From IMG/VR virus record IMGVR_UViG_3300044655_001510: a DNA stretch of 20,000 nt; one strand, 5' to 3'. Shown here piece after piece: positions 1 to 20,000 of this stretch (within the stretch, counting starts at the first letter, position 1; every line of letters starts with the position of its first letter). The notes beneath the pieces are model-generated. The model searched no databases, had not been told where the DNA came from, and worked only from the letters and a program-made list of their open reading frames with translations. The translations under genes and the position numbers were made by a program. Source of the DNA: an uncultured virus (IMG/VR IMGVR_UViG_3300044655_001510) (Duplodnaviria; Heunggongvirae; Uroviricota; Caudoviricetes).

Positions 1-33
1 CTTGTACCAGTGAGAGATATTGACGATGATTGA
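1..33 (+). CDS. C-terminal fragment of mini-CLec/DUF1566-like paralog (runs off window)
   Basis: Reads LVPVRDIDDD*, the family's PVRD tail; stop overlaps next ATG (ATGATTGA). Confidence 0.75.
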   Translation, partial: LVPVRDIDDD

Positions 34-229
34 GATTGGGAAGTACTATAACAAACGAATCACGTATGACGAGGCAATCTTATATTGTTTTTGCTTGGGT
101 GATGGTTGGAGATTGCCATCTGAAGCCGAATACATTGAGTATGAATTGCAAGGTTCTTGGTATGTTGATAGAATCTCACAAGTTAGTACGTTTTTTGTTA
201 GACCAGTGCGAGATATAAAAGATGATTAA
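26..229 (+). CDS. mini-CLec/DUF1566-like small protein
   Basis: MIEIG..TYDEAILYCFCLGDGWRLPS..W..RPVRD; ATG at 26 coupled to upstream stop. Confidence 0.8.
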   Translation: MIEIGKYYNKRITYDEAILYCFCLGDGWRLPSEAEYIEYELQGSWYVDRISQVSTFFVRPVRDIKDD

Positions 230-443
230 ACTGCAAATGGGTAAACCAACCATGTCGAGAATCACATACGAGAATGCACAGTTCTACATATTCTGCCTAG
301 GTGATGGCTGGAGAATGCCAACTCTGAATGAGTGCATAATATATCAAATGTACGGTGATTGGTGGTATACTGAACGACGTTGTTACAGTGTAGATGATGT
401 ATACCTTTTACAACCTGTTCGCGAGGTACCTGAAGATGATTGA
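222..443 (+). CDS. mini-CLec/DUF1566-like small protein
   Basis: TYENAQFYIFCLGDGWRMPT..WW..QPVRE; 8-nt overlap with previous gene. Confidence 0.8.
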   Translation: MIKLQMGKPTMSRITYENAQFYIFCLGDGWRMPTLNECIIYQMYGDWWYTERRCYSVDDVYLLQPVREVPEDD

Positions 444-696
444 AATAGCCACTGAGGATCTTGTAGCAATGCTTACCTTCGACGAAGTAAAACTGTATTT
501 GTTTTCTTTAGGTGATGGATGGCGATTGCCAGCAATCACTGAGGTAGTTCTATGCCGACAAAAACATCCCATTCTTGGACTAGCCGGAACGCTGTGGAGT
601 GATGTTTGGTTTAATTTTATTCAAGCACAAACCCATCCAGGTAGAGGTAGATCCTCACACTTATTAATCCCAGTACGAGATCTAAAAGATGATTGA
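436..696 (+). CDS. mini-CLec/DUF1566-like small protein
   Basis: Start reassigned to MIEIAT at 436; TFDEVKLYLFSLGDGWRLP..W..IPVRD. Confidence 0.8.
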   Translation: MIEIATEDLVAMLTFDEVKLYLFSLGDGWRLPAITEVVLCRQKHPILGLAGTLWSDVWFNFIQAQTHPGRGRSSHLLIPVRDLKDD

Positions 697-904
697 AATA
701 GCACCAATGGACCGTGAGATCCTCCTAAATTACGAGGAAGCAATGATATATTGCTTTTCGTTAAACATCGATGGTAAAATAGGTTGGCGATTACCAACCA
801 AAGATGAATGGTACGATAACGATCAATTAATGGGTTGTTGGTATATTGGTAGACCCAGTAAAGGTAAATGGTTGCTTGCACCAGTACGAAGCATTGACAA
901 TTAA
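689..904 (+). CDS. mini-CLec/DUF1566-like small protein
   Basis: MIEIAP..YEEAMIYCFSLNIDGKIGWRLPT..CW..APVR. Confidence 0.85.
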   Translation: MIEIAPMDREILLNYEEAMIYCFSLNIDGKIGWRLPTKDEWYDNDQLMGCWYIGRPSKGKWLLAPVRSIDN

Positions 905-922
905 ACCAAAGTAAGCTATTAT
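894..922 (+). promoter_or_regulatory. sigma70-type early promoter
   Basis: TTGACA(894)-N17-TATTAT; 12-mer ATTATCTTTTAG overlaps the -10. Confidence 0.65.
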
Positions 923-951
923 CTTTTAGAAAATCACCAAAGGAAAATCAA

Positions 952-1320
952 ATGGCAGAAAACAAATGGCATTATCACGATTGGTATGCAGTACAAAGAA
1001 CCCATGTGGAATTCGATACTGTAAAACTATTAACACTAGAAACAAACAAAGGCGTAGTTCATAAACTTGTACCAAACAAAATCATTGGTAAACTAGAATA
1101 TGAGTTTGGTAATAACTGTTTGAAATACTTGATTCATACTGCTACCCTAGAGAAACTACAAGATGCGGATATCTTCTATGAGTGTGAAGACAAGTTGTTT
1201 AAGTTTATTTCTTGTAATGGAGACTTAGCCGTTATAGCAGCAAAAGCCATGCGATACGAAATTCCATTTGCTGATATCGCATACAAAGAATTTGAATTAA
1301 AAACTGCATTAAAGTGGTGA
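952..1320 (+). CDS. hypothetical phage protein
   Basis: 122-aa ORF, AAGGA RBS, directly after promoter. Confidence 0.75.
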   Translation: MAENKWHYHDWYAVQRTHVEFDTVKLLTLETNKGVVHKLVPNKIIGKLEYEFGNNCLKYLIHTATLEKLQDADIFYECEDKLFKFISCNGDLAVIAAKAMRYEIPFADIAYKEFELKTALKW

Positions 1321-1324
1321 AGCT

Positions 1325-1558
1325 ATGATAATTGAAGAATTTGGGATTGAACTAGCACCACTGTCAGAATCCGCGATGTCATATACCGAAGCAAAAATGT
1401 ATTGCTTCACATTAACGTATGATGATAAGATCGGTTGGAGATTACCAAGCTACGATGAATGGGAAATCATTCCACATATCGTCGGATGGCACGAAAACAA
1501 GTTGGCAAGCGATAGTACTTTTCCACGACGAGTTATGCCAGTGAGAGATTTGAGATGA
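1325..1558 (+). CDS. mini-CLec/DUF1566-like small protein
   Basis: IELAP..SYTEAKMYCFTL..KIGWRLPS..W..MPVRD. Confidence 0.85.
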   Translation: MIIEEFGIELAPLSESAMSYTEAKMYCFTLTYDDKIGWRLPSYDEWEIIPHIVGWHENKLASDSTFPRRVMPVRDLR

Positions 1559-1638
1559 TTGAAATAGGTGAACGAACAAAATTCGAAATGACGCATGATA
1601 ATAACAACTTCTTAACAAACAACATAATGGAGTTACGC

Positions 1639-1830
1639 ATGATTGAACAATTTTCACATATAGGTACCGACCATATTTGCAATGTTTGTTCTTGCGAATT
1701 TTCGGATGACGAAGGCGGAATTCAAGGATACTTTGGAATACTTCCAGTTGCATTTTGTCCAACCTGTTACAGTAGTATGTACGATATGGTTCAGCAAGAC
1801 ATGGAATACATGGACGACCTCGACGAATAG
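1639..1830 (+). CDS. small CxxC..CxxC (zinc-finger-like) protein; in-frame upstream part from 1555 looks like a mini-CLec remnant
   Basis: GGAG RBS at 1629 before ATG 1639; CNVC...CPTC; acidic tail. Confidence 0.7.
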   Translation: MIEQFSHIGTDHICNVCSCEFSDDEGGIQGYFGILPVAFCPTCYSSMYDMVQQDMEYMDDLDE

Positions 1831-1833
1831 TAG

Positions 1834-1861
1834 TTGACATCCAGTCAACTACAGGTATAAT
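1834..1861 (+). promoter_or_regulatory. sigma70-type early promoter
   Basis: TTGACA-N16-TATAAT; inverted repeat TAGTTGAC..GTCAACTA covers the -35. Confidence 0.75.
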
Positions 1862-1888
1862 ACTCTTAACTTAACACAGGAGTACAAC

Positions 1889-2197
1889 ATGCAAAAACTA
1901 CACAGAGACTTTAAACGATGGTTGAAATCAAATGGATTGCAACCAGAAGGTCGAAAAAAATCAAAAAGCTGGAGACGGCTATTCTCAACTTGCCCACCTT
2001 ACTTTATTGGCAATGATCGCAGATGGCGTTTCTTGGTACCAGAAAACGGACAACTCAGATTTCAAGTTTCTTGTCCATTAGAACACTTTGATCGTTGGGC
2101 TAACAGTGCTGGTGAAAGTATTCCACTACCACAAACTAAAGAAGAGTTTGACAAAGCTATCCAACAACTGATATTATCTTCTAAGGATTTGACATGA
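1889..2197 (+). CDS. hypothetical basic phage protein
   Basis: 102-aa ORF with AGGAG RBS after promoter. Confidence 0.8.
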   Translation: MQKLHRDFKRWLKSNGLQPEGRKKSKSWRRLFSTCPPYFIGNDRRWRFLVPENGQLRFQVSCPLEHFDRWANSAGESIPLPQTKEEFDKAIQQLILSSKDLT

Positions 2198-2203
2198 TAA
2201 ACC

Positions 2204-2400
2204 CATTCACAACAGGTATACAAGTCAACTACCCGACGACTAAAGATCGTCGGGCTTGCTTACTCCCATGACTAACTACTGGTGATTTAGTAGATCTCTC
2301 GATTTTAGAAGTCATTTTCAGTAAAGCCTCTGGGATTACTCCCACATCGCCTGTTGCGTGCGATGATAATTTGGTTCCATAATTGAGTCTTTGCCCTTCA
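2204..2400 (-). ncRNA. putative TnpB omega/reRNA (scaffold plus flank-derived guide); 5' boundary uncertain
   Basis: TnpB reRNAs are known to overlap the tnpB 3' end and right end and read into the flank; RE hairpin present. Confidence 0.55.
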
Positions 2401-3646
2401 TGGAGAATATTTGTGGCAGCATTCAAGTCTCTGTCATGGACTTCGCCACAAGAAGGGCATTCCCATTCACGAGTTGCTAAATCCAATGATTCGAGTTTAT
2501 GGCCACAGCAAGAACAGGTCTTGCTACTTGGATAAAACCTGCCTACTTGTTGAACAAGAACGCCAGCCCATTCCGCTTTATATTTGATCATTTCTGAAAG
2601 AGTAGACCAAGCGATTTCGTGGATTGCTCTGCTGAGTTTCCGGTTCTTAAGTAAATTACTGACTGCCAAATCTTCTAAATAAATCACGTCATTGGTAGCC
2701 ACTAGGTATTTACTAAGGATATGATAATACTCATTTCGCTGTCGCGTAATCTTGGAATACAAACGAGCCACCTGAATCCGTAGTTTCTCGTGGTTTTTGC
2801 TGCCTTTGGTAGTTCTTGCAAACTGCTTTTGTTTGCGTTTCAATAGCTGCTTGGTTTTCGCATGGTATAGCAACGCATCTGGTTTTAAAAATCGAAGACC
2901 ACTTGAAGTAATCATCAAATCTTTAATACCTAAATCAAAACCGACTTCTCGATTTTTGTAATCTTGGGTGGGTACATCTGTTTCTATTAGCACAGATGCA
3001 TAATACCGATCATCTGGATTTTTAGGAACGGTTATTGATTTAACAACTGCACCTTCAGGGATTGGTCTATGGATAACTGCTTTTACTTCTTTTAATTTTG
3101 GAAGTTTAATGGCATTATCTAGTACTTTGGTTCCTCGACCAGGGGTTCGATATGACTGACGTCCATGTTTTGATTTGAACCTTGGCTCTTCTACTCGTTT
3201 ACCTTTTCTGTTTCCAGCACGGGATTTGAACATGTTATCATATGCAGCTGCGAGGTCAGCTGATGCGCCTTGTAAGGCATTCATGTCTACTTCGCAAAGG
3301 AATTCCAGTTCTTTCTTTAACGGGGTAATGAGTTTATTGACCGCGAATCCATTCAGGTGTGGTTCACCTGCCAAATATCTTCGTTCATTTTCTGCTTTAA
3401 ATCGGTTATAGATCAGTCTCTTGCAACCAAATGTCTTCCCAATCAGAATTTGTTGCTCTGATGTCGGGTATATACGATATTTGATTGCAATTAATCTTTT
3501 CATGTCTGTATTTAGCATTTGACAAAGAACGACTTATGGATTAACGTATGGTTTTATTACTTGATGGGGAATTAAACATGAATAGCGAATTACCACACGC
3601 ATTCCTCCCGGCGACTAAAGATCACCGGGTTTCCTGCGCGAATCAG
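2224..3646 (-). mobile_element. IS200/IS605-family, tnpB-only (IS1341-like) element
   Basis: Matching subterminal hairpins CCCGACGA-CTAAAGA-TCGTCGGG (2232-2254) and CCCGGCGA-CTAAAGA-TCACCGGG (3607-3629); right end ...GGGTAGTTGAC; TTCAT flanks left end on - strand; no TSD, no tnpA. Confidence 0.85.
2229..3503 (-). CDS. tnpB: RNA-guided endonuclease TnpB
   Basis: N-terminal KYRIYPT..FG HTH; RuvC-I GFDLG, RuvC-II LEDL, zinc ribbon CSCCG..CPSCG, RuvC-III DRDLNAA; start 3503 (or 3518). Confidence 0.95.
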   Translation of the reverse strand: MKRLIAIKYRIYPTSEQQILIGKTFGCKRLIYNRFKAENERRYLAGEPHLNGFAVNKLITPLKKELEFLCEVDMNALQGASADLAAAYDNMFKSRAGNRKGKRVEEPRFKSKHGRQSYRTPGRGTKVLDNAIKLPKLKEVKAVIHRPIPEGAVVKSITVPKNPDDRYYASVLIETDVPTQDYKNREVGFDLGIKDLMITSSGLRFLKPDALLYHAKTKQLLKRKQKQFARTTKGSKNHEKLRIQVARLYSKITRQRNEYYHILSKYLVATNDVIYLEDLAVSNLLKNRKLSRAIHEIAWSTLSEMIKYKAEWAGVLVQQVGRFYPSSKTCSCCGHKLESLDLATREWECPSCGEVHDRDLNAATNILHEGQRLNYGTKLSSHATGDVGVIPEALLKMTSKIERSTKSPVVSHGSKQARRSLVVG

Positions 3647-3936: not shown

Positions 3937-3944
3937 CTAAATAC
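3937..3944 (+). promoter_or_regulatory. T4-late-like promoter CTAAATAC
   Basis: Similar to T4 late TATAAATA; no -35; same motif at 5900, 13099 (+) and 3508, 7968, 11578 (-). Confidence 0.55.
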
Positions 3945-3971: not shown

Positions 3972-4784
3972 ATGCGAATTCACGAACTACTAGAACCAAA
4001 GAAACCTTTAACTGCAGTTAAAAGTTCAACTGTATCAAAATCTGGGATGCAAGGTTCTAAGAACAAAATAGCACAACGTACTTTTACCACAAACAAAGGT
4101 AATCAAGTAGACATTCAATTCAAAACAACAACCGATGGCGATGAGAAAACAACCGATGTTGTTTTCTATGTTAATGGTACAATGTATGATACCGCATCGA
4201 CTGAAGGAAAAGATATTGATAATGATTTTGATATTCTATCTGGGGTTGGCTACATTGTTAAAACCTATCTTGACAAAGCCAAAATCGACCGATGCACTTT
4301 CTCTGCACATTCAACTCCTAGTGATACAAAACACAAATTCAATATACCAGTAGAAAGACCTAAAAGAGAATTACTCGCATCATTGCAAGGTTTAAGTTCA
4401 GTGACAAACGAGTTACTAAAAACTGAAGAAGATGAGATTAGAAAGAATAAGTACAATGTGGTATTAGAAACAATCGAGGCAATCAAACAATATCTTACCC
4501 AGCCAGTTGAAAAATATAGTTCAAGTGAGTTTGATAAACTATACTGGCAAATACGCAAAGCTGCTGACATGAAACTCAGCAAATATCCAGAGATGAACGA
4601 AGCCTTCAAACAACTAGAACGATTCATGTCAGTGATCACTAGTTACTCTCCAGAAGGCGTACACGTTAGACAAAATCGTAGATTCGCAGTCTATTCTAAA
4701 ATCCTTAACAAGTTCTTCTCTAGCACTTGGGATATCGAAACCTACGGTGATAGCTTCATCCTTACTAGAAAGGCATCAGTATGA
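3972..4784 (+). CDS. putative virion internal protein (MRIHELLE N-terminus)
   Basis: GAGGA RBS before ATG 3972; N-terminus resembles T4 capsid-targeting sequence. Confidence 0.7.
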   Translation: MRIHELLEPKKPLTAVKSSTVSKSGMQGSKNKIAQRTFTTNKGNQVDIQFKTTTDGDEKTTDVVFYVNGTMYDTASTEGKDIDNDFDILSGVGYIVKTYLDKAKIDRCTFSAHSTPSDTKHKFNIPVERPKRELLASLQGLSSVTNELLKTEEDEIRKNKYNVVLETIEAIKQYLTQPVEKYSSSEFDKLYWQIRKAADMKLSKYPEMNEAFKQLERFMSVITSYSPEGVHVRQNRRFAVYSKILNKFFSSTWDIETYGDSFILTRKASV

Positions 4785-5587
4785 GAATCGCAGAAATCTT
4801 AAGTGAACGTATATCGTTATCAACCTACACCCCAACAATAAACCGAGCACTACATAACGCTGTTGTAAACATATTCAAAACGCCAACGCAACCACCATCG
4901 AAAATGGATATGCAGTTTATGGTCAAGTACAACACTGCGTTTGTTAATGCGATCAAACCTATTCTAACAGATTACGCAAAACAAATAACAAACAGTGAGG
5001 TTACTATTCAGTTTAAATCCCTACCCAATGGAACCGGCCAGTACATAGAAGATACCAACACGATAACTATTTCACCTAAAGTACTTTCAAAATTAATAAC
5101 ACTGTTATATAAACAGTTGACAGATAAGATTGACGTTTCTACTGAACTAGATACTATCATTGGTTACTTGACTTCAGTATTCCTGCATGAAGTTACTCAT
5201 GCCACACAAGTAAGTCACGGACAACGATACGAATACAAACATGGCTATATCGAAAAGGACAAAATCAAATTCTTTACAGCCTTGATTCAGGATGAATTCA
5301 AATCAGAAGAAGAGAAAGTAAGAGCACACGAAATCTACAAATCTCAACCAGATGAAATAGCAGCATACGCACAAGAAGCTGCATCGGATCTAATCAATAA
5401 TATTCATAAGTTACCTGTAGCTGAACAAGCCACTGCTATTACTGTATTCCTAAAAGAAATCTCAAAGCAAGCAACTACCTATTCTGATTTTAAGAATAGA
5501 CAAGAACCAGGCTACGAGAAAGTATATCGCAGATACTTGAAATCAATCTACCAACATCTTACTGATTATCAATCAAGTTTAAGTTGA
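4781..5587 (+). CDS. zincin-like metalloprotease-domain protein, putative virion internal protein
   Basis: FLHEVTHATQ (HExxH) plus downstream PDEIAAYA; N-terminus MRIAEILSE; ATGA overlap. Confidence 0.7.
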   Translation: MRIAEILSERISLSTYTPTINRALHNAVVNIFKTPTQPPSKMDMQFMVKYNTAFVNAIKPILTDYAKQITNSEVTIQFKSLPNGTGQYIEDTNTITISPKVLSKLITLLYKQLTDKIDVSTELDTIIGYLTSVFLHEVTHATQVSHGQRYEYKHGYIEKDKIKFFTALIQDEFKSEEEKVRAHEIYKSQPDEIAAYAQEAASDLINNIHKLPVAEQATAITVFLKEISKQATTYSDFKNRQEPGYEKVYRRYLKSIYQHLTDYQSSLS

Positions 5588-5612: not shown

Positions 5613-5855
5613 ATGACTATCGAAATAGCACCCATCGAATACCATGACGCAATGACATGGAATCAAGCTAAACTCTATTTGTTTGCATTGAACATAGATG
5701 GTAAGATTGGTTGGAGACTACCAACAAGAAAAGAGTTTAGCGTGGATATGCATGGCCTGTATTTATGTTGGGTACAAGAAGATCAATCATCATTGATGGA
5801 TTCAGAACTAGATACATTACAATACATATGTTATCCAGTCCGAGATGTCAAATAG
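5613..5855 (+). CDS. mini-CLec/DUF1566-like small protein
   Basis: IEIAP..TWNQAKLYLFALNIDGKIGWRLPT..CW..YPVRD. Confidence 0.85.
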   Translation: MTIEIAPIEYHDAMTWNQAKLYLFALNIDGKIGWRLPTRKEFSVDMHGLYLCWVQEDQSSLMDSELDTLQYICYPVRDVK

Positions 5856-6655: not shown

Positions 6656-6682
6656 AAGGGTATCTAAGTATACCCTTTTTTG
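6656..6682 (+). terminator. intrinsic terminator
   Basis: AAGGGTAT-ctaagt-ATACCCTT followed by T run. Confidence 0.75.
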
Positions 6683-6685: not shown

Positions 6686-6713
6686 TTGACATAATTGATT
6701 GTTTCGGTATAAT
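6686..6713 (+). promoter_or_regulatory. sigma70-type early promoter
   Basis: TTGACA-N16-TATAAT; 12-mer at 6727 in leader. Confidence 0.75.
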
Positions 6714-6746: not shown

Positions 6747-6980
6747 ATGGCCATCGAAATAGCACCAGAAGAATATCACAAAGAAGAAATAACCTACTCG
6801 GAAGCATTGGTCTATTGCTTCTCCCTTGATATCGATGGTAAGATAGGATGGCGATTACCGACAGATCAAGAATACGTCTTTGAACTACCAGACCGGTACA
6901 ATGTACTTTTTCAAAATTGCAATTACTTTGATCATAATACAGCAACCTGCATACCAGTACGAGATGTAAAAGATGATTGA
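6747..6980 (+). CDS. mini-CLec/DUF1566-like small protein
   Basis: IEIAP..TYSEALVYCFSLDIDGKIGWRLPT..IPVRD. Confidence 0.85.
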   Translation: MAIEIAPEEYHKEEITYSEALVYCFSLDIDGKIGWRLPTDQEYVFELPDRYNVLFQNCNYFDHNTATCIPVRDVKDD

Positions 6981-7278
6981 AATAGCACCTAAAGAAACTG
7001 TAGCAAAACTTACGTGGGAAGATGCCAGACTCTACTGCTTCGCACTCAATGCAAACAACAAAACTGGATGGCGTTTACCTACCCTCGAAGAACTCTATTA
7101 CGTCAGAGAAAACTTAGATTATAAATTCGGTCATGATTACTACTGGTCGTCTGAGTCTACAGCAGATAGAGCTAATTGCGTTTTCATGGGAGGCTACAAG
7201 TATCCTAGTAAGGATTGTACAAGAAACTCACCAACCACTTTTACTTTCTACGTAAGAGCAGTCAGAGATATAACATGA
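6973..7278 (+). CDS. DUF1566/Lcl-like protein (longer form)
   Basis: TWEDARLYC..GWRLPTLEEL..YYWSS..YVRAVR, the canonical DUF1566 pattern. Confidence 0.85.
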   Translation: MIEIAPKETVAKLTWEDARLYCFALNANNKTGWRLPTLEELYYVRENLDYKFGHDYYWSSESTADRANCVFMGGYKYPSKDCTRNSPTTFTFYVRAVRDIT

Positions 7279-7571
7279 ACATCGAAATTGCACCAAAAGA
7301 AACTGAGGTCATAGCCAATTGGGAAGATGCCAAACTCTACTGCTTCGCACTTAATACAAATAACAAAACTGGTTGGCGTTTACCCACTAAAGAAGAACTT
7401 AATGAGATCTATGAATCAGGGAAAATTTTGGGGAATCATTGGTACTGGTCATCTTCTGATTCTAAGTACGATGCTAACTCTGTATGGGTTCAGGATTTTT
7501 CCAAAGGTTTCAAGTATTACGGTAATAAGACCAAAGACCTTAACCATGTTAGAGCAGTCAGAGATCTCTAA
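7275..7571 (+). CDS. DUF1566/Lcl-like protein (longer form)
   Basis: Start reassigned to 7275 (ATGA overlap); NWEDAKLYC..GWRLPTKEEL..WYWSS..VWVQDF..G..HVRAVR. Confidence 0.85.
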   Translation: MNIEIAPKETEVIANWEDAKLYCFALNTNNKTGWRLPTKEELNEIYESGKILGNHWYWSSSDSKYDANSVWVQDFSKGFKYYGNKTKDLNHVRAVRDL

Positions 7572-8155: not shown

Positions 8156-8184
8156 TTGACAGCACCCTCAAAATGGGCTATATT
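8156..8184 (+). promoter_or_regulatory. sigma70-type promoter
   Basis: TTGACA-N17-TATATT, AGGAG RBS follows. Confidence 0.7.
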
Positions 8185-8210: not shown

Positions 8211-8498
8211 ATGAGTATAGAAGTATCACCTAGGGAGGCTGAAATGTTTGGAGATTGGTACGAGGCCACCCTTATTATAAAGAGTATGCGAGTAAATGAG
8301 CACGATAACTGGAGATTACCGACGATCACGGAACTTATCGACATATACAAGCAAGATAACGACTTTACGCTGTCTAATTACTGGAGTTCGGATGAAGCGG
8401 AGAACTTTGCGTTAGCACATAGTTTCAGTGACAATAGTACTAGTAGAATAGTTAAGACTAGGGTGGCGAGTATAAGGGCGGTGCGAGATGTCAACTGA
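8211..8498 (+). CDS. DUF1566/Lcl-like protein
   Basis: IEVSP..DWYEA..NWRLPTITEL..YWSS..IRAVRD. Confidence 0.85.
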   Translation: MSIEVSPREAEMFGDWYEATLIIKSMRVNEHDNWRLPTITELIDIYKQDNDFTLSNYWSSDEAENFALAHSFSDNSTSRIVKTRVASIRAVRDVN

Positions 8499-8769
8499 CA
8501 ATGGCTCGCTCCTAGCGGAGCTCGCAGCACCAGCAACACAATACACTGAACAAACCCATATAGTACCGATACCGTTGACATACACGGAAGCGAAGCTATA
8601 CGCATTCGCCCAAGCTGAACACTGGAGACAGTTGACTATAGCGGATGTTAATGATATGTACTACGATAATCCGTATGTTAACCTGTGGATAGAGGACGAT
8701 ACAGTGCAGATTGCCTTATCTGTTACTAGACCTAGCATAAAGAGGATGCTGGTATTAGTAAAAAGATGA
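8488..8769 (+). CDS. degenerate mini-CLec-like paralog
   Basis: LTYTEAKLYAFA..WRQLT..LW..LVLVK; N-terminus includes a 22-bp hairpin repeat. Confidence 0.55.
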   Translation: MSTDNGSLLAELAAPATQYTEQTHIVPIPLTYTEAKLYAFAQAEHWRQLTIADVNDMYYDNPYVNLWIEDDTVQIALSVTRPSIKRMLVLVKR

Positions 8770-9078: not shown

Positions 9079-9786
9079 ATGAGTTTAGTTCAAGTATCAA
9101 AGCACACTATTACAGTAGAAACATACAACTGGAAAGCAGGAGTAAATGCTAGTAGAGAAGAAGCGGAGCAGTTCCTTAAAGACTTTACAATTGCACTGGG
9201 ACAAACCCATACTAAGTTACCGGTGGCTGAGTTAAAGGCTAGTGCTGAGGTAGTAGACCCAGTGGTACAACCTGATATTAAGAAGGTGGTAGCTAAGGCT
9301 GCACCATCTAGCAGTGACATCAAGTTGGCTAAACAAGCCCTAGGAGAACTTTATACCGGTACTAAGTATACCCCAGAAGAATCTGACTTGGCAGGACGTA
9401 TAGCTGCTGCTGGATTTACGGGTGAAGAGTTATCTATTGCTCGTAATGTAGTGACTATGTTATCTACGTATGGTAACAGTTTGAAACAAGATAAGTTACA
9501 ACGTGACTTGGGATTGAGACCCTTCCAGTTTGAGAAGTTATTCGAGGTATTCTTTGAGGGTACGTTTGCATCTACACAGCGTGAGATTACCTTGATGCGT
9601 GGTGCTAAGATGTTAGAAGAGGATACTATATCAAAGATTTCAGACATCGCAAAATCGTTACTTTATTCTAAAGCAGGTTTCAGATCGGCGTTTAATGCTA
9701 TGTTTGGGATCTCGCCATTGGAGTATCGTCAGAATGCGCAACGTGAGAAGGGTAAGAAAGCGTTGGCAGAGTTAGTACACGCATAA
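9079..9786 (+). CDS. AraC-family HTH domain protein
   Basis: C-terminal MRGAKML..ISDIAKSLLY..GFRSAFNAMFGISPLEYR matches the AraC double-HTH signature. Confidence 0.75.
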   Translation: MSLVQVSKHTITVETYNWKAGVNASREEAEQFLKDFTIALGQTHTKLPVAELKASAEVVDPVVQPDIKKVVAKAAPSSSDIKLAKQALGELYTGTKYTPEESDLAGRIAAAGFTGEELSIARNVVTMLSTYGNSLKQDKLQRDLGLRPFQFEKLFEVFFEGTFASTQREITLMRGAKMLEEDTISKISDIAKSLLYSKAGFRSAFNAMFGISPLEYRQNAQREKGKKALAELVHA

Positions 9787-10316: not shown

Positions 10317-10463
10317 ATGGAAGAGTCAACAGATAAGGAACCGGTTGCATGGATGGCTAGGTATATTGACAAGGATGGCAATGAGGCGGTGTATACCACG
10401 ACTGTGTATGAGTTAGCAGTAGAGAACGATGCGAATGGCCAACCCATTCCATTATATATGTAA
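10317..10463 (+). CDS. 48-aa phage protein with EPVAW..PLY motif
   Basis: Manually translated MEESTDKEPVAWMARY...PIPLYM*; fills the gap between neighbours. Confidence 0.65.
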   Translation: MEESTDKEPVAWMARYIDKDGNEAVYTTTVYELAVENDANGQPIPLYM

Positions 10464-10482
10464 TTATCTTTTAGGTGAAATA

Positions 10483-11076
10483 ATGATTAAAGTAGAAGCA
10501 GTTAAAACATTTAGTTGGGCAGCGGCAGAAGGGTTGACTGAAGAAGAGGCAAGTGCGTTTCATGCGGAGTTGGGTTTAGCACTAGGGAAAAGTTTACCGG
10601 TGGCTGAGTTGCGTAATGGGTTGATGTCTGGTAATAGTTTATTAGTGAATACTGCGTTGCAGACTTTATATACTAACATGAGATACAAGCCAACTGCTGA
10701 GGATTTAACTGAGAGAGTTGCAGCTGCAGGTTATCAGATGAGTGACTTGGCATTGATTCAGAAGTTAGTAGCTAAGATTGAGGCTGGTGTGGATAAGGAA
10801 GGGGTATACTTGGCAGCTGGTTTGCCGGTTCATAAGGTAGATGCTTTGTTTAGTGCCTTCTTTGATAACACGTTTGCTATGGTAAGTAGAGATGTGCGTA
10901 TGACATTGGCTAAGTCGTTGTTGGATAGTGGTCGATTTGTCTCTATAGATGAAATTGCAAGTAAGTGTGGTTATGCCAATGCGACTAGTTTCAGAATTTG
11001 CTATAAGAACTGGTTTGGTGAGTATCCACAGCTTACAAGAGTTAAAGCCGTTAAGCAGTTGTTTGTGTTTGACTAA
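10483..11076 (+). CDS. AraC-family HTH domain protein (paralog of 9079-9786)
   Basis: RMTLAKSLL..SIDEIASKCGYANATSFRICYKNWFGEYP; shared N-terminal EEA..F..ALG..LPVAEL. Confidence 0.8.
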   Translation: MIKVEAVKTFSWAAAEGLTEEEASAFHAELGLALGKSLPVAELRNGLMSGNSLLVNTALQTLYTNMRYKPTAEDLTERVAAAGYQMSDLALIQKLVAKIEAGVDKEGVYLAAGLPVHKVDALFSAFFDNTFAMVSRDVRMTLAKSLLDSGRFVSIDEIASKCGYANATSFRICYKNWFGEYPQLTRVKAVKQLFVFD

Positions 11077-12121: not shown

Positions 12122-12234
12122 ATTGCCTGTTGGAAATACTACATAGTGTGTCATCACAACCTAAAAGATAATGATTGACACTACAGACATATCACATTAA
12201 TATTTGGCATTTTTAACCTTTGGAGATAAAGCAG

Positions 12235-12735
12235 ATGAAAAACAACTCACCAACTGTTTCTTGGAAAGATCTTGACAGTTTATCATTTCATAAAGATAAC
12301 AAACTGTTTGACATTGTAATGGTTACTAACAGAAACAGAAGTAACATTAAGTCGTATATTAAGTCGAAATGCGACCTAGTAGGTGGATGTTATTATTGGT
12401 TTCGTGGAGATGGAGATATTCGCGGTGCTGTTCAAGTGTTCATTGATAAACGAAAACCACTCTCTCAGGGTAAGCCATATGAAGTAATCAAAAATGGTAA
12501 ACGTTGCAGAACATTAAAAACTGATCTTATTGACGTTATGTCAGTTATGTCTGCAAATGATTTAACCATTGCTGATTTAACTGGTATAACGTTTAACAAG
12601 AATGGTAAACAACTAAACCTAGTATGTATGGGTAACGTTCCAATTGTTGGAGTGGAGACGTTGGATGATTTAGTAACCAAACTTTACGACAATGAATATG
12701 CGGTTGATATGGATAGTCTGGTGAGTACCCAGTAG
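12235..12735 (+). CDS. hypothetical phage protein
   Basis: GGAG RBS before ATG 12235; promoter TTGACA(12175)-N17-TAATAT. Confidence 0.75.
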   Translation: MKNNSPTVSWKDLDSLSFHKDNKLFDIVMVTNRNRSNIKSYIKSKCDLVGGCYYWFRGDGDIRGAVQVFIDKRKPLSQGKPYEVIKNGKRCRTLKTDLIDVMSVMSANDLTIADLTGITFNKNGKQLNLVCMGNVPIVGVETLDDLVTKLYDNEYAVDMDSLVSTQ

Positions 12736-13224: not shown

Positions 13225-15006
13225 ATGATCGAAATCCACGAGTCTGTGTACGAAGCAATGTATGCGGAGTTTTCTAAAAAATCAGTAGATAAAGCACTTG
13301 AGAAGTATTCTAAGGTCTTGTCTAACTTGATACATATATCAATTACAAACGATTACGCATGTACTGCGTATAGTCAGTATCAGATCCCGTTACAATCATT
13401 GGTGACCAAAGGTGGTAAGATCACTGATTCCAAGGGGAAACAGATACGAGTTCATTCCTGGCTAAAAGATAATAAGCCAATCATAAAAGTTCTAAACATG
13501 GGTAATAGTTTACAGAAGGTAAAATCTACTATTTCCCTAATTGACAACCGATGTACTTACACAGATCTATTTGACATGAGCCTAGAAGAATACGAAGAAA
13601 AACAACTTAACATCCAGACTGATGATTTCCTTGATAATGAAATGTATGATGATTTATTCTACAGGGAATATCCAGAGGTTCTATATGCAAGACAAGGATT
13701 GATGTCAGTTGATGATTGCCTAGCGATGTTTCACCCAATTGAAGTTAATGCTACAACGTTAACTAATTACTTGAATTGGCTTATCTATGACAGTACTAAG
13801 TTGGATGAGAACCAACGCAAGAGTTATATACGTAAGGCTAAGATGATATTGGCCCTAGCACATAAAGGAGATGGGTATTGGTTCCAGCGGAAGAAGCAGA
13901 GTGTATTTGGCCGGTTGTATTATGTTGGGTTATCGATGCATAACATTCCAAGGGAAATGCGTAAGAATGTATTGGGTGATTCATGGCAGTATGATATCAG
14001 TTCTTCATCCATTGCCTGGAAGTATAGTTATGCAGCTGCGTATAACCGAGAAGTTAAACCAGAAAGGTTCCAGTATACTAATCATTACCTGACAGATAAG
14101 GAAGACTTTATACAGGACTGTTTGAAGCACGTGTTCTTATGCCGTACTTACAAAGACAAGGAGGGTAATGTTCACCGGTATGATCCTGAGTGGTGTCGTA
14201 AAAAGATCAAGGCTATGATGAATGCCATATCTTTTGGTGCGAAGGTATTCGGGATTGTCATACCCAACCCAAAAGATCCAGATAATCCATTGGTTAATTC
14301 GTTAGGTGATATCCTAAAAGATAATGAAATCCGTGATGCATTTTTGAATCATGATTTGATTAGTGGATTTATCTATGAGCATATGGAGTTAGCTGAGTTT
14401 ATCCTAGAGAAGAATAAGAGTATATTGGCTCCGTTAACCTGTACTAAAACAGATACTGGGCGTCGTAGTAAGGCCAAAGAGATGGCTTACTTGTACCAGC
14501 ATGCTGAGACTGAGATCATGACTAGAGCTACTTCGATTGCGGAAGCAATGGGGCATGAGATACTAATCGGTGTGCATGACGCGTTCATTGTGCGAAATAA
14601 GATTGCATTTGATGATCTGCAGGAGATTGAGCTGTGCATCCAATCAGAGTTTGGTATGCCATATTGGAAGTTAGTGGGTGAGAAACTTACTGGGTATACT
14701 GCGATGGTTGGTCCTAGAGTTGAGGATAATGACCGTAAGGTTGCCATTCATAGATTAGTCATACGTGAGCAGGAATATGAATTGTCACGTGGTAATACTA
14801 CTCGGATCATTGAATCGGATATTGATGATTCATTAATTGAACCAGAGATGCGAGCCATTAAGGAGGAACGCGAACGCTATGCTAAACGCCATCGTGACTC
14901 TTGGGGTACAGATTACTTTGATGGTTCTGATCATAGATACGATGGTGTTCAGTATGGGGATGAAGAGTACTTGTATGAATATGACGACGAGGATGACGAA
15001 GACTAG
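13225..15006 (+). CDS. divergent family-A polymerase-fold protein (Pol A / T7-RNAP-like)
   Basis: FGRLY..HNIP..R; QYDISSS (motif A Asp); RKKIKAMMNAISFG (R-x3-K-x7-aromatic-G, motif B); YQHAE; GVHDAF (motif C); acidic tail. Confidence 0.7.
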   Translation: MIEIHESVYEAMYAEFSKKSVDKALEKYSKVLSNLIHISITNDYACTAYSQYQIPLQSLVTKGGKITDSKGKQIRVHSWLKDNKPIIKVLNMGNSLQKVKSTISLIDNRCTYTDLFDMSLEEYEEKQLNIQTDDFLDNEMYDDLFYREYPEVLYARQGLMSVDDCLAMFHPIEVNATTLTNYLNWLIYDSTKLDENQRKSYIRKAKMILALAHKGDGYWFQRKKQSVFGRLYYVGLSMHNIPREMRKNVLGDSWQYDISSSSIAWKYSYAAAYNREVKPERFQYTNHYLTDKEDFIQDCLKHVFLCRTYKDKEGNVHRYDPEWCRKKIKAMMNAISFGAKVFGIVIPNPKDPDNPLVNSLGDILKDNEIRDAFLNHDLISGFIYEHMELAEFILEKNKSILAPLTCTKTDTGRRSKAKEMAYLYQHAETEIMTRATSIAEAMGHEILIGVHDAFIVRNKIAFDDLQEIELCIQSEFGMPYWKLVGEKLTGYTAMVGPRVEDNDRKVAIHRLVIREQEYELSRGNTTRIIESDIDDSLIEPEMRAIKEERERYAKRHRDSWGTDYFDGSDHRYDGVQYGDEEYLYEYDDEDDED

Positions 15007-16334: not shown

Positions 16335-16338
16335 AATC

Positions 16339-16369
16339 AAAAAAGCCATCGAAAAGATGGCTTTTTTAT
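16339..16369. terminator. bidirectional intrinsic terminator
   Basis: AAAAAAGCCATC-GAAAA-GATGGCTTTTTT. Confidence 0.85.
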
Positions 16370-16462
16370 GCCTAAAAGATAATTGTTCCACGTGAAACAA
16401 ATAGCTTGACAGATGGGAAATTATCTTTTAGACTGTTGCCAACTTAACTGGAGGGTATACAA

Positions 16463-16669
16463 ATGAACCATAACGCAATATTGAAGCAGGCTAGAGCCAA
16501 TGCAAAGGCATTGGGGTTGACATTACTGAAGTTAAAGGGTAAGATAGATGGTATTTCTTGGTATGCGATAGTACCGAGAAGAAGGTCTGGCTTGCCAATG
16601 ATTGGGTTTGAACGCGTATCATTGGGCTGTGCTGCCAGTAAACTACAGGCATTAAGCCAATCGGAGTAA
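16463..16669 (+). CDS. small basic hypothetical protein
   Basis: Promoter TTGACA(16406)-N17-TAGACT; GGAGG RBS. Confidence 0.7.
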   Translation: MNHNAILKQARANAKALGLTLLKLKGKIDGISWYAIVPRRRSGLPMIGFERVSLGCAASKLQALSQSE

Positions 16670-16673
16670 TTAA

Positions 16674-16874
16674 ATGGCAAACTACTTACAAGCAACAACA
16701 GCAACTGGCGTAACCATCATCGACTCAACAGATCTTCCTGAAGGCGCAGACATCCTGTATCCACATGACTTCATGGATGATTTGAGATCCCTAAAAGATG
16801 GGGAAGTCATCTTCACTTATGTGTATCCAGACGAGCAAGAGTGGATTGATAGGGATTTTGGTATACAGAGTTGA
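16674..16874 (+). CDS. small acidic hypothetical protein
   Basis: GGAG RBS; 66 aa. Confidence 0.7.
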   Translation: MANYLQATTATGVTIIDSTDLPEGADILYPHDFMDDLRSLKDGEVIFTYVYPDEQEWIDRDFGIQS

Positions 16875-16930
16875 CAAGTAACCAGTAACTTGGTAGACTA
16901 ATGCCAACTTAAACCCAAGAGGATACTACG

Positions 16931-17122
16931 ATGATAGATTCATATATTGAGAAAGTTAAACAAATCCCAGAGGCTTATGAGCAGTATTCTGTACTGTACG
17001 AGCAGTATGAGGGAGAATCCAATCTGGATTTTATTGAGAGATGTGCTGTCATGGACTTTGATGATGGTGCATATCAAGGCAGTGTTTACCAAGAACTGTA
17101 TGATGAGTTGGTGGGTTGTTGA
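16931..17122 (+). CDS. small acidic hypothetical protein
   Basis: Promoter TTGACA(16871)-N17-TAGACT; GAGGA RBS. Confidence 0.7.
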   Translation: MIDSYIEKVKQIPEAYEQYSVLYEQYEGESNLDFIERCAVMDFDDGAYQGSVYQELYDELVGC

Positions 17123-17182
17123 CAACTCAGCTAACTACTGGTAGGCTATAAGCCGAAACATAAACATACAGGAGCAAACAAA

Positions 17183-17356
17183 ATGAACGAACCGACATTT
17201 ATACTAGGCACAAAACCGCGTAATGATTCGATCAAACTGGACTTGGACGAGCTGCAAGCTATGCCAGAGGAGGAGGCAATTGCAATCATTGCAGACTATA
17301 AGCGACGTGGTTATTGGTTTTCTTTATCCAATGACTCGATAATCGCATCACACTAA
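17183..17356 (+). CDS. 57-aa hypothetical protein
   Basis: Manually translated MNEPTFILGTKPRNDSIKLDLDELQAMPEEE...; promoter at 17119, AGGAG RBS. Confidence 0.7.
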   Translation: MNEPTFILGTKPRNDSIKLDLDELQAMPEEEAIAIIADYKRRGYWFSLSNDSIIASH

Positions 17357-17429
17357 AAGATAATTTGACAAGGTGGGTATTTTCGAGTAGGATGTACCCA
17401 CATTAACAAAGCACTACAGGAAAACAACA

Positions 17430-17660
17430 ATGCTAAGAGATAGACAAGCCGCAAATCGCATTATAACCTTACTAGAGTTACCTGCAACTGATATTGGTAG
17501 CCTTACTGATTTATTAACAGACATTATCCATTACTGCAATATAGAGGGTGAGGATTTCAATGAGTTACTAAAAGATGCTCAAGATTATGCAAAGCAAGAG
17601 ATAGCAATGGATGAAGTGGAGTTGGACGAGATTGCAGAATCAGAATGGAATAGAATCTAA
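17430..17660 (+). CDS. hypothetical phage protein (DLL.DII.YC family)
   Basis: Own promoter cassette; homologous to C-terminal half of 18916-19173. Confidence 0.75.
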   Translation: MLRDRQAANRIITLLELPATDIGSLTDLLTDIIHYCNIEGEDFNELLKDAQDYAKQEIAMDEVELDEIAESEWNRI

Positions 17661-17803
17661 AAAACAGTTGACAACTGGGTAAAGATCTACTAAACTATAC
17701 CCACCTTGAAACAAGGCAACCCACTAAAAGATAATGATTGACAAGGTGGTAATTATCTTTTAGAATATACCCACCTTAACAAAGCACTACAGGAAACAAG
17801 ACA

Positions 17804-18511
17804 ATGACTTTCAAATTATTAAGCACTAGCAATACTAAAACCATGAAAGGTGAAAAGGTAGGATATATGACTTACATTCTTCACTTAGCACCATATACCC
17901 TAGGTGGTATTAACGTATGTCCTAAAGCCACTGCTGGATGTATTGCAGGGTGTTTAAACACTGCTGGACGTGGTGGTATGTTCAAAGCAGGTGAAACCAC
18001 TAACACTGTACAAAAAGCGCGTGTGCGTAGAACGCAGTTATTTGCAACAAACAGAGAGGTTTTCATGGAAACCTTAATCACTGATATTACCAAGGCAATC
18101 AAACAAGCAGAGCGTAAAGGTATGATACCAGTGTTTCGTTTGAATGGCACTAGTGATCTTAGCTGGGAGAAGTATTACTGGGGTGGTAAAAACATCTTTG
18201 AACACTTCCCAATGGTACAGTTTTATGATTACACTAAGGTGTTAGGACGTAAAGTGCAACATATCCCTAACTATCACTTAACTTTTAGCAGAGCAGAGAG
18301 TAATAATGTGGATATATCACACGCATTTTTGCAAGGTATGAATGTTGCGTATGTATTCGACAAAACGCCTACCGAATGGCAAGGTGTGCCAGTACATGAC
18401 GGTGACGTGGATGATCTAAGATTCTTAGACCCTAAAGGCGTTATCGTAGGATTGAAAGCAAAAGGACGTGCTAAAAAAGACACTAGCGGATTCGTTATTC
18501 GCACAAAATAA
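17804..18511 (+). CDS. Gp88-family phage protein (radical-SAM-like Cys triad)
   Basis: LAP..VCP.A..GC..GCL..AGRG, FRLNGTSD..WE, QFYDYTK, YHLTFS, DGD..DLRFLD..VGLKAKG. Confidence 0.8.
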   Translation: MTFKLLSTSNTKTMKGEKVGYMTYILHLAPYTLGGINVCPKATAGCIAGCLNTAGRGGMFKAGETTNTVQKARVRRTQLFATNREVFMETLITDITKAIKQAERKGMIPVFRLNGTSDLSWEKYYWGGKNIFEHFPMVQFYDYTKVLGRKVQHIPNYHLTFSRAESNNVDISHAFLQGMNVAYVFDKTPTEWQGVPVHDGDVDDLRFLDPKGVIVGLKAKGRAKKDTSGFVIRTK

Positions 18512-18576
18512 AGATTGACATGGTGGGTATTTTCTTTTAGAATGTACCCACCTTAACAGAACTACGGAGAATATCC

Positions 18577-18840
18577 ATGTACACCATGACAGAAACCACC
18601 TTTGCTGATTTATTACCTTACTTGGAATTGTTTGACGAGGAGGACAATGGATTCTTCCAATACGAACCAGCACGTCATATCCAACTCTATGTAAAAGAGT
18701 TTGGTGATGTGGTAGAAGTAGGAACAGTAGAAGTCTTAGGTGATAGCGTGACATTCAGAAACATTGGTGGTGGTAAATGCGGTACTGCCAAAGTCAATAG
18801 TATTGAATGCGCTGTAATGAAACAAAACAGACTAATCTAA
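18577..18840 (+). CDS. hypothetical protein (paralog of 19555-19815)
   Basis: MYTMTETTFADLLPYL..YVKE.G.VVEV..VEV.GD.V.F..IECAV.KQ. Confidence 0.8.
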   Translation: MYTMTETTFADLLPYLELFDEEDNGFFQYEPARHIQLYVKEFGDVVEVGTVEVLGDSVTFRNIGGGKCGTAKVNSIECAVMKQNRLI

Positions 18841-18915
18841 AAACAAATAGTTGACAATGGGTACATTCGCCTTTATAATGTACCCACCTTAACAAAGCAC
18901 TACGGAGTAAACAAT

Positions 18916-19173
18916 ATGAACAATTCGATTAAACTTGTGTTAGCAGAACTACAGGAAATGCCAGAAGGAGAAGAAGTATTTAAAAAGTTTTCTTTTTACA
19001 CTGGTGTTGAAAAGATTGCGGCAATATTAAAATTAGAAGATTATGGTTATGAAACAACCGTAGCAGATTTGTTAGTAGATATTATTCGTTACTGTGATTG
19101 TCATAATATCAACTTTAAAGAAGAAGTCGCTGATGCACTAGAAGATGCTGAGGCAGAACTAACACACGGGTAA
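18916..19173 (+). CDS. hypothetical protein, apparent chimera
   Basis: Own promoter cassette; halves match 17183 and 17430 products. Confidence 0.75.
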   Translation: MNNSIKLVLAELQEMPEGEEVFKKFSFYTGVEKIAAILKLEDYGYETTVADLLVDIIRYCDCHNINFKEEVADALEDAEAELTHG

Positions 19174-19244
19174 AAAAAGTTGACACTGGGTGCATTTTAA
19201 ACTATAATGTACCCACTTTAACAAAGCACTACGGAGTAAAGCCA

Positions 19245-19481
19245 ATGAGTAGTTTATACTGGAACGGCATTCAAAAACGGTCAGACCTTTATAGCATGGT
19301 ACAGTCATACAGACGTGACATTAAAGCTATGTTTGACATCTATGACACTGATTACTTAAAGTCACTGACAGAGAGTGAAGTCATTGCTAGGGACGAGATA
19401 GTAGCAGATATAACTGCCTTAATCGCAAAGATTGAAACCTTACGCGCGACATATCCTAAATTAGAACACGATTTAACCTAA
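19245..19481 (+). CDS. hypothetical protein
   Basis: Own promoter cassette with GGAG RBS. Confidence 0.75.
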   Translation: MSSLYWNGIQKRSDLYSMVQSYRRDIKAMFDIYDTDYLKSLTESEVIARDEIVADITALIAKIETLRATYPKLEHDLT

Positions 19482-19554
19482 AAACAAATAGTTGACATTG
19501 AGTACATTCGCCTTTATAATATACCCACCTTAACAAGCACTACGGAGAATATCC

Positions 19555-19815
19555 ATGTACACAATGACAAAAACCACCTTAGCTGAAATCATGCCATACT
19601 TGGTAGAATACTCGGATTATGCGGATTCAATCGATTACGAAGTTGCTAAAGACTATCAAATATATGTTAAAGATTGTGGCGAAGTGGTCGAGGTTGCTTT
19701 AGTTGAAGTAGCTGGTGACACTGTACTATTCAAAGGCACTGATGGCGAGTTTGGTGAAGAAATTTCAGCAGATGAAATAGAATGTGCGGTAATAAAACAA
19801 ACCAGAATAATCTAA
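19555..19815 (+). CDS. hypothetical protein (paralog of 18577-18840)
   Basis: Same leader (GGAGAATATCCATG) and similar protein. Confidence 0.8.
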   Translation: MYTMTKTTLAEIMPYLVEYSDYADSIDYEVAKDYQIYVKDCGEVVEVALVEVAGDTVLFKGTDGEFGEEISADEIECAVIKQTRII

Positions 19816-19890
19816 AAACAAATAGTTGACATTGGGTACATTCGCCTTTATAATGTACCCACCTTAACAAAGCACTACGGAGTAAAAGAT

Positions 19891-20000
19891 ATGAACATTG
19901 AAATCGCACCAAAAGAAACAGAGATTCAAGCCAACTGGTATGATGCCAGCCAATACTGCTTTTCGCTTAATATCAACGAGAAAACAGGATGGCGTTTACC
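19891..20000 (+). CDS. DUF1566/Lcl-like paralog, 5' part
   Basis: MNIEIAPKETEIQANWYDASQYCFSLNINEKTGWRL, closest to the 7275 copy. Confidence 0.85.
   Translation, partial: MNIEIAPKETEIQANWYDASQYCFSLNINEKTGWRL

Follow-up and report, generated by a model that had tools for sequence, protein, structure and literature searches.

A lineage-specific family of stand-alone C-type-lectin-fold genes in an uncultured freshwater jumbo phage

We have found that a 20,000-nt stretch of DNA from an uncultured virus of the Caudoviricetes (IMG/VR record IMGVR_UViG_3300044655_001510; the whole stretch is called the window here) carries members of one lineage-specific multigene family of stand-alone C-type-lectin-fold (CLec) proteins. 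The window has 11 complete members of the family (67-101 aa), two that are truncated at its ends and one remnant of 13 codons, all of them built on the scaffold MIEIAP..LYCF..GWRLP..W..PVRD. We give a probability of about 0.55 to the account as a whole, in which a lectin-fold family diversified by recombination would serve as an early intracellular repertoire of binders. The part of it that concerns the family, its fold and expansion, the variation in one segment, the gene junctions, the mosaics, purifying selection and the lack of signs of a diversity-generating retroelement (DGR) is, taken alone, very probably correct.

A first-pass annotation of the window had placed 14 copies there, and each of these positions proved real in the list of open reading frames (ORFs), in searches with a hidden Markov model (HMM) of the family, in a six-frame scan and on direct reading. 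The HMM matched each of the 11 complete genes at E values between 1e-17 and 1e-32, and the six-frame scan of the window returned 12 significant matches and no additional copy (next best E 3.2). Alignments of the window copies show the motifs MIEIAP, EA.LYCF.L, GWRLPT..E, a later W and a closing PVRD or VRAVRD. Successive genes overlap by 8 nt, and the junction sequence, AAAGATGATTGAAATAG, reads as K-D-D-stop in one frame and as M-I-E-I in the other.

The window comes from the early-type part of the genome of a T4/Rak2-like jumbo myovirus, uncultured and from fresh water. Genome-wide counts of the family were taken from relatives of the window, mainly G001 and G002. G001 is an IMG/VR contig of 327,256 bp (92% complete by CheckV) that is collinear with the window in reverse and about 93% identical to it in nucleotide sequence (85-96% per block). 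G002 is 372,173 bp long and 100% complete, with direct terminal repeats and a capsid protein of 79% identity. The gene content of G001 was assessed by PHROG scans of 95 large ORFs. These gave structural genes (a gp23-type capsid protein, sheath, baseplate, large terminase and a 4,529-aa virion protein), genes of replication and recombination (UvsX, gp32, an SbcCD-like nuclease, a clamp loader and a family-B polymerase) and a gp55-like late sigma factor. Because G001 encodes this sigma factor together with UvsX, gp32 and SbcCD-like proteins, a T4-type programme fits the phage.

Judged by the capsid protein (65-68% identity), the closest cultured phages are Vibrio 2.275.O, Sinorhizobium Phosso, Pectobacterium CBB and Cronobacter GAP32. 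These Rak2-like jumbo myoviruses share the T4-type set of replication, recombination and late-sigma genes and the giant virion protein, but differ in the family itself, since the family HMM matched none of the four, with G001 and G002 as positive controls. Searches of cultured phages with the nucleotide sequence of the whole window, and by tblastn with the short copy at 689, gave no match. Among bacterial genomes there were only distant partial relatives of the family, at 13 loci with 26-48% identity, and these do not indicate the host. The public runs that contain the window are lake-water and freshwater metagenomes.

Predicted fold and genomic expansion

The kinship with DUF1566 and the C-type lectins that the first-pass annotation had read from motifs holds at the level of both profiles and predicted structures. 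The Pfam family PF07603 (Lcl_C, formerly DUF1566) has a curated gathering cut-off of 34.9 bits, which is exceeded by three of 12 window ORFs, namely those at 6973 (35.7 bits), 7275 (54.1 bits) and 8211 (35.8 bits). Four short copies match only the N-terminal half of Lcl_C at 15-20 bits, and the other five ORFs have no Lcl_C match. In G001, 27 of the 59 Lcl_C matches lie above the cut-off. When a profile of 41 short copies was aligned by hhalign with one of 44 long copies, the two were joined with a probability of 99.96% (E 5.6e-39) over 77 columns running from the N-terminus to PVRD; relative to the long profile, the short copies are without about 25 middle columns.

AlphaFold2 models were made of the 71-aa copy at 689 and the 98-aa copy at 7275, with predicted local distance difference test scores (pLDDT) of 92.9 and 95.7, respectively. 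Foldseek matched the long model to the C-terminal domain of Legionella Lcl (Protein Data Bank (PDB) entry 8q4e; E 1.4e-5, template modelling score 0.81, 29% identity), followed by the fibre tip Bd2740 of Bdellovibrio and many C-type lectin domains. For the short model the Foldseek result was weak, with 8q4e as the best match at E 0.6. VIA-align gave seven chains with a Z score of at least 5 for this model, every one of CLec type: the scores were 6.2 for TvpA, 6.0 for Bd2740, 5.9 for A35R of monkeypox virus (MPXV), 5.9 for Lcl, 5.2 for CarF and 5.1 for CLEC12A, and Link modules, invasin and intimin appeared lower down. The short model consists of an N-terminal strand, a first helix with LYCF, the GWRLP stretch, a second helix and a closing PVRD strand, with a short loop that contains a W in place of the second beta-sheet. 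On these profiles and models the long copies (~97 aa) are full Lcl_C/DUF1566 domains with a C-type-lectin fold. The modelling supports the short copies (67-91 aa) as a homologous, trimmed "compact" CLec domain, an assignment made because a modest Z of about 6 is joined by profile homology. The class name of compact or truncated C-type-lectin-like domains (CTLDs) is reportedly that of Zelensky and Gready in 2005.

A search of PDB sequences with the short profile reached 8q4e only at E 0.46. It also returned designed beta-propellers (Cake, Scone), which were rejected as spurious, their scores being sums of ~3.6-bit repeats of the word 'N.DG..WR'. The motifs EPN or QPD followed by WND, which bind Ca2+ and sugars, were present in 0 of 137 copies. 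A single Cys is conserved (in YCF), and the number of Cys per copy ranges from 0 to 5.

Lcl_C of Legionella pneumophila Lcl (8q4e) shares with the phage copies the motifs LYC, GWRLPT..EL, YWSS and VRxVR as well as the fold. It normally occurs as one module in proteins that are secreted or at the surface, and a single polypeptide often has several in a row, whereas the phage copies are single-domain genes of 67-107 aa; half of these have no second beta-sheet and do not reach the Pfam cut-off. The long-loop sheet is absent from compact CTLDs (poxvirus A33/A35, Link modules, intimin/invasin) as it is from the short copies, and VIA Z scores of the short model were 5.9/5.7 for MPXV A35R, 4.9/3.9 for the aggrecan/LYVE-1 Link modules, 4.8 for invasin and 4.0 for intimin. 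Those domains, however, are extracellular, disulfide-bonded modules of larger proteins, in contrast to the free-standing phage copies of 67-91 aa with their one conserved Cys.

The first-pass annotation had proposed a genome-wide copy count as a check, and this gave 83 ORFs in G001 and 49 matches in G002, both relatives of the window. The 83 ORFs of G001 carry 84 domains by the family profile and are all open, with no internal stops; 36 are at most 91 aa long, 44 have 92-125 aa and three are longer or contain two domains. Together they take up about 24 kb (some 7%) of the contig. Clustering of 497 de-overlapped G001 ORFs by BLAST gave a family cluster of 75, the next-largest family having five members, and the family accordingly accounts for 75-83 of ~497 ORFs, roughly one in six. 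The family genes are grouped in 26 arrays, the largest with 17 genes, and neighbours overlap by 8 nt in 21 cases and by 4 nt in 18. One ORF of G001, at 36532-37197 (-), has two tandem family domains, one long and one short, and no other clear fusion was seen there.

In G002 the matches belong nearly all to the short class and are clustered near both genome ends. Its lectin genes lie at 1-11 kb, 41-44 kb and 352-363 kb and have a distinct consensus (…AWLYCLTL.YNGHKDWRLPT…). Fragments of the same clade have 5-8 family copies each. The short profile, run against a library of 1.84 billion representative proteins, found many stand-alone proteins of 72-110 aa together with giant multi-repeat Lcl_C proteins. 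Some of the 4,696 matches in this search may be spurious, and the five large ones examined were genuine multi-Lcl_C proteins with 3-10 repeats. Ten library clusters that were examined had only the label 'hypothetical protein' and came from metagenomes, and neighbours in the ESM Atlas were viral clusters of ~100 aa with Lcl_C.

The Lcl_C family and the CLec fold were already known (PF07603; the Lcl structure paper, PMC11162425). What seems to be new is the stand-alone gene format, the trimmed form of 67-91 aa and the scale of the expansion (about one-sixth of the genes of a 330-kb phage). Literature searches, including passages of PMC7824862 and PMC13573597, found no publication of these three features, and the supplements of such papers might list families of this kind. 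The passages of Iyer et al. 2021 (PMC7824862) describe a ~35-copy zinc ribbon in Bacillus phage G, termed an unprecedented expansion, and report that 224 jumbo phages had no 'FGS' domains of CLec fold. In phage G, too, a single small domain has given rise to tens of genes in tandem; its domain and host system differ from those here, and the 83 copies in G001 exceed the number given in those passages. A term search in a 2026 paper on freshwater jumbo phages found neither the domain nor such a family mentioned under the terms used.

Variation among copies and its sources

Variation was measured on 128 parsed copies of the 137. The N-terminal part has a median length of 32 aa with a standard deviation of 4.3, and the segment from WRLP to PVR ranges from 25 to 76 aa with a standard deviation of 13.3 and is bimodal near 30 and 54. 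Column entropy in short copies is 1.55 bits in the N-terminal part versus 2.97 in the segment, and in long copies 0.93 versus 2.26. The first-pass annotation had described a constant frame with variation concentrated between GWRLP and PVRD, and both the spread of lengths and the column entropy agree with it. DNA identity over 3,916 copy pairs averaged 0.63 in the N-terminal part and 0.49 beyond. The copies at 6973 and 7275, as had been noticed, have nearly the same DNA as far as GWRLPT and diverge from there on, and the copy at 19891 is similar to both.

The content of the arrays differs between the two ~93%-identical strains, in that three G001 copies are absent at window position 1555 and the copy at 436 is without a G001 counterpart. 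Mosaic structure was seen in five pairs of long copies, in which the N-terminal halves hardly differ, synonymous sites included: the proportion of synonymous differences (pS) is 0.13-0.25 there versus 0.44-0.67 in the C-terminal half. The C-terminal halves are as different as those of unrelated paralogues, with breakpoints at GWRLPT and at the VRAVRD codons. Five of ten positional orthologues between the window and G001 have a synonymous divergence (dS) of 0.5-2.3, and adjacent non-family genes have 0.02-0.40 in 20 of 21 cases, the exception being a GP88-family gene at 1.07. By these divergences, whole family genes appear to have been replaced in five of the ten orthologues. Copy gain and loss, mosaics and gene replacement between strains bear out the earlier proposal that the family grew by duplication and recombination. 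Contigs from RNA libraries also contain joints between copies (705>1421, 705>5679 and 5717>6951), with sides of at most 30 nt; these may come from other paralogues or strains and were not counted as evidence.

In the remaining five orthologue pairs the variable half is as conserved as the scaffold, with ratios of nonsynonymous to synonymous divergence (dN/dS) of 0.07-0.49. All ten pairs have a dN/dS of 0.07-0.60, similar to that of neighbouring genes, and individual copies are therefore kept by selection. Whole-gene dN/dS never exceeded 1, and positive selection was not shown in a test that is limited by synonymous saturation. A tree of the 137 copies has seven changes of lineage label, versus a mean of 38.6 after shuffling, with none of 500 shuffles as low. 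This clustering by lineage points to separate expansions or to homogenisation within lineages.

The first-pass annotation had further suggested that diversification was possibly helped by a DGR elsewhere in the genome. Put as an explanation in its own right, the copies would be targets of such an element, and mutagenic reverse transcription would rewrite their variable segment. DUF1566 and CLec domains are reported as known DGR targets, and the variable segment lies on the C-terminal side, as in DGR variable proteins. Proteins of this kind (Mtd of Bordetella phage, 1yu0; TvpA of Treponema, 2y3c; TaqVP of Thermus, 5vf4) belong to the same fold class and have a C-terminal variable surface, and the short model has them as structural neighbours in VIA-align, with Z scores of 6.2 (TvpA), 3.9 and 4.0. 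Moreover, the only cultured-phage match of the copy at 7275 is in Pseudomonas phage Cruim01, three genes upstream of an annotated reverse transcriptase. The Cruim01 protein has 203 aa with the domain at its C-terminus and the annotated reverse transcriptase downstream, which is the classical arrangement and contrasts with the stand-alone genes described here. The phage family has neither a reverse transcriptase nor template-repeat logic nor adenine-specific variation, and consists of many germline genes where a DGR rewrites one.

The search for a reverse transcriptase (RVT_1, E≤1) had no match in G001, in the complete G002 or in three fragments (G003-G005), though it was positive in four of 14 control genomes. 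Mismatches in the variable half of close paralogue pairs are spread equally over the four bases (A 0.28, C 0.33, G 0.27, T 0.30), with no adenine bias among these pairs and with indels also present. The purifying selection on the variable half in five between-strain orthologue pairs likewise argues against rewriting. Involvement of a DGR is thus not supported, and a DGR as the source of the variation is close to refuted; we give it next to no probability.

Possible function and competing explanations

We propose that copy number shifts by unequal crossing-over at the conserved stop/start junctions (…KDD*/MIEI…), and that the variable half or entire genes may be swapped by homologous recombination between conserved flanks, an exchange probably driven by the phage's own UvsX/gp46-47-type machinery. 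The products would be cytoplasmic proteins, made early from promoters of the host RNA polymerase, and each would present a different binding surface on the common scaffold. Their most likely job would be to bind varied host molecules in takeover or counter-defence. Such an early intracellular repertoire of binders is plausible because the N-termini are not signal-like, the regions are rich in sigma-70 sites and the phage is T4/Rak2-like. The takeover or counter-defence role is proposed from the position of the genes in a promoter-rich region of early type; this functional part of the account is tentative, and we rate it somewhat below even odds.

Stand-alone genes with no signal-peptide-like N-termini had been described at the outset, and by a proxy this stands: a hydrophobic run of at least eight in the first 30 residues was found in 0 of 91 copies, and the median isoelectric point is 4.8. 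The window has seven perfect sigma-70 sites (TTGACA-16/17-TATAAT) and eight sites with 11 of 12 matches, all intergenic and on the coding strand. The perfect sites lie at 1834, 6686, 15057, 18851, 19180, 19492 and 19826 (+), and 12/12 matches are far above chance. In G001 there are 80 such sites that follow gene orientation, and they are densest in the 80-140-kb block with the window counterpart. By analogy with T4, consensus promoters of host type would mark the early genes of a phage that has a gp55-like late sigma factor. The claim that most copies follow early promoters held in part. Near-consensus sigma-70 sites directly precede the copies at 6747, 8211 and 19891, but the copy at 1325 is reached only via the ORF at 952, and none is listed before 5613. 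Contigs of two RNA-library runs cover the TnpB gene, the AraC-type genes and some others of the window, with little or none on the lectin arrays, though contigs of this kind cannot show absence.

Several observations weigh against the account. All genomes compared are metagenome assemblies, in which tandem repeats are prone to mis-assembly. Only five pairs, all of long copies, are clear mosaics, synonymous sites are saturated in most paralogue pairs (pS about 0.65-0.75), and the copy tree is poorly resolved, with seven of 134 branches starred. The Z score of about 6 for the short model is by itself within the range that the tool calls a 'common arrangement', and the signal-peptide result comes from hydrophobicity as a proxy and not from SignalP. 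Only ten of the 26 arrays in G001 have a site of at least 11/12 within 150 bp upstream. No copy matches PADLOC models, which describe defence systems and not counter-defence, or any named PHROG function. Finally, the characterised relatives of the domain (Lcl, Bd2740 and TvpA) are extracellular adhesins or DGR-varied receptor binders, so that an intracellular role would be unusual.

The copies could instead be virion or surface adhesins, small receptor-binding tips or decoration proteins on fibres or capsid that widen the host range. The structural neighbours include adhesin tips (the C-terminus of the Bdellovibrio fibre Bd2740, Lcl, invasin and intimin), phrog_4245, a phage family of 583 positions, matches long copies at its C-terminus, and Rak2-like phages have many fibre genes, several of them in G001. 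The phage proteins, however, are the domain alone, with no attachment module, and their arrays lie in sigma-70-rich regions among replication and early-type genes, outside the fibre or baseplate modules; in the complete G002 they cluster near both ends. We therefore consider adhesins improbable. A similarly small probability goes to a largely non-adaptive amplification, in which an overlapping junction prone to unequal crossing-over would have generated copies with little individual function. The high uniformity of the junction and the differences in copy number between close strains (the three copies at 1555, and the copy at 436 present only in the window) would be expected of such a process. 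Yet all 83 ORFs in G001 are open, the ten orthologue pairs have dN/dS values like those of their neighbours, the family persists across lineages whose capsid proteins are only 79% identical, and packaging a family that takes up about 7% of the genome has a real cost.

The early intracellular binder repertoire may also be put in a bolder form, which we regard as doubtful. Here 50-80 or more mini lectin-fold binders would form a germline repertoire, diversified by cassette exchange with no DGR and deployed early inside the cell as a broad-spectrum library for counter-defence or takeover, each member neutralising a different host protein, glycan or signalling molecule. The family would then correspond, in a phage, to the terminal multigene families that large eukaryotic viruses carry. 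Poxviruses and African swine fever virus have such terminal families, and the likeness to lineage-specific expansions in large viruses lies in the strain-variable arrays and in their concentration near the genome ends of G002. If the copies are early intracellular binders, they would amount to a natural collection of scaffolds that are very small, fold well and have one variable surface, of use in protein engineering. If the account is true, phages would have a new route besides DGRs for keeping CLec-based recognition diverse. It raises the testable question of what a phage gains from dozens of paralogous binders.

Family members and other genes of the window

All family members of the window lie on the + strand. 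The window start cuts the first copy to a 3' tail (1-33), which on direct reading encodes ...LVPVRDIDDD* and has its counterpart at G001 119014-119256. The short copy at 26-229 (67 aa, MIEIGKYY…PVRDIKDD; HMM E 8e-23) overlaps the preceding stop by 8 nt with its start, which is the ATG at 26 and not the TTG at 20; its orthologue G001_118818 is 99% identical in amino acids, with a dN/dS of 0.24. Next comes a short copy of 73 aa at 222-443 (E 1.7e-23), for which whole-gene replacement is likely because its dS of 0.85 to G001_118580 far exceeds that of the adjacent genes. The short copy with a long loop at 436-696 (86 aa; E 1.9e-21) has no close G001 partner, no blastn match for 449-688 and no pair in the tree. 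It is followed at 689-904 by the modelled 71-aa short copy, with VIA Z scores of 5.9-6.2 to CLec folds, and at 1325-1558 by a short copy of 77 aa (E 3e-26; orthologue G001_117489, dS 0.21, dN/dS 0.24).

The 13-codon remnant, MIEIGERTKFEMT, occupies 1555-1593 and continues in frame into a small zinc-ribbon ORF ending at 1830. At this locus G001 carries, between matching flanks, three further intact copies and a promoter, and by this comparison the remnant appears to be the leftover of a deletion. Within the fusion ORF (1555-1830, +), the zinc-ribbon-like part (C..C…CP.C) probably has its own start near 1629. The zinc-ribbon gene has its own consensus promoter in G001, and part of that promoter is deleted in the window.

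Further downstream, a short copy of 80 aa lies at 5613-5855 (E 2.6e-32; 66% amino acid identity to G001_113235, dS 0.79). The array at 6747-7571 is headed by a perfect sigma-70 site (TTGACA-16-TATAAT, 6686-6713, +), directly before which there is a terminator-like hairpin at 6656-6677. Its members are a short copy of 77 aa at 6747-6980 (E 1.3e-26; orthologue G001_111357, 95% amino acid identity, dN/dS 0.19), a long copy of 101 aa at 6973-7278 and a long copy of 98 aa at 7275-7571, which is the best Lcl_C match and the modelled long form. The copy at 6973 is a mosaic relative to its positional orthologue G001_108869, with a pS of 0.13 in the N-terminal half and 0.55 in the C-terminal half. An 11/12 sigma-70-like site (8156-8184, +) precedes the pair at 8211-8769. 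The first of the pair, at 8211-8498, is a long copy of 95 aa (orthologue G001_108181, 98% amino acid identity, dN/dS 0.07), and the second, at 8488-8769, is a divergent copy of 93 aa (…EHWRQLT…; E 1.2e-17) with no Pfam Lcl_C match and an orthologue, G001_107892, at 87% amino acid identity. The last copy, a long one, is cut by the window end to its 5' 36 codons (19891-20000; E 1.1e-15); it follows a perfect sigma-70 site at 19826-19854 (+), and its counterpart at G001 97574-97867 has 97 aa.

Among the other genes, a TnpB-type gene at 2229-3518 (-; HTH_OrfB_IS605, OrfB_IS605 and Cas12f1-like TNB; phrog_506, E 6e-115) is an insertion with respect to G001. The G001 sequence that matches it best lies at another place (172499-173802, 80% nucleotide identity), at least four such ORFs occur in G001, and parts of the gene are covered by RNA-library contigs. 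The genes at 9079-9786 and 10429-11076 (+) encode a pair of paralogues, each with an AraC-type HTH_18 domain at the C-terminus. Contigs of two metatranscriptome runs cover this pair and are assigned to relatives because of their ~5% differences. Rfam and tRNA scans of the window gave no matches. The 593-aa ORF at 13225-15006 (+), with a very acidic C-terminal tail, had no match in Pfam, PHROG or PADLOC, and a tblastn search of 50,697 records of cultured phages also gave none; its G001 counterpart is 95% identical. A 171-aa ORF at 12220-12735 (+) is without a G001 counterpart.

The region 17430-19890 (+) consists of repeated short promoter-plus-gene cassettes, each gene standing behind a consensus promoter and with no match to any family; paralogue pairs among them are 18577-18840 and 19555-19815 (87 and 86 aa), and 17430-17660 and 18916-19173. 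The GP88-family gene (PF17338) at 17804-18511 (+) has 75% amino acid identity to its G001 counterpart, and its dS of 1.07, far above that of its neighbours, suggests an allelic replacement. An ORF of 268 aa at 4781-5587 (+) contains an HEVTH motif and has weak, sub-threshold matches to the putative metallopeptidase families DUF6782 and DUF4344.

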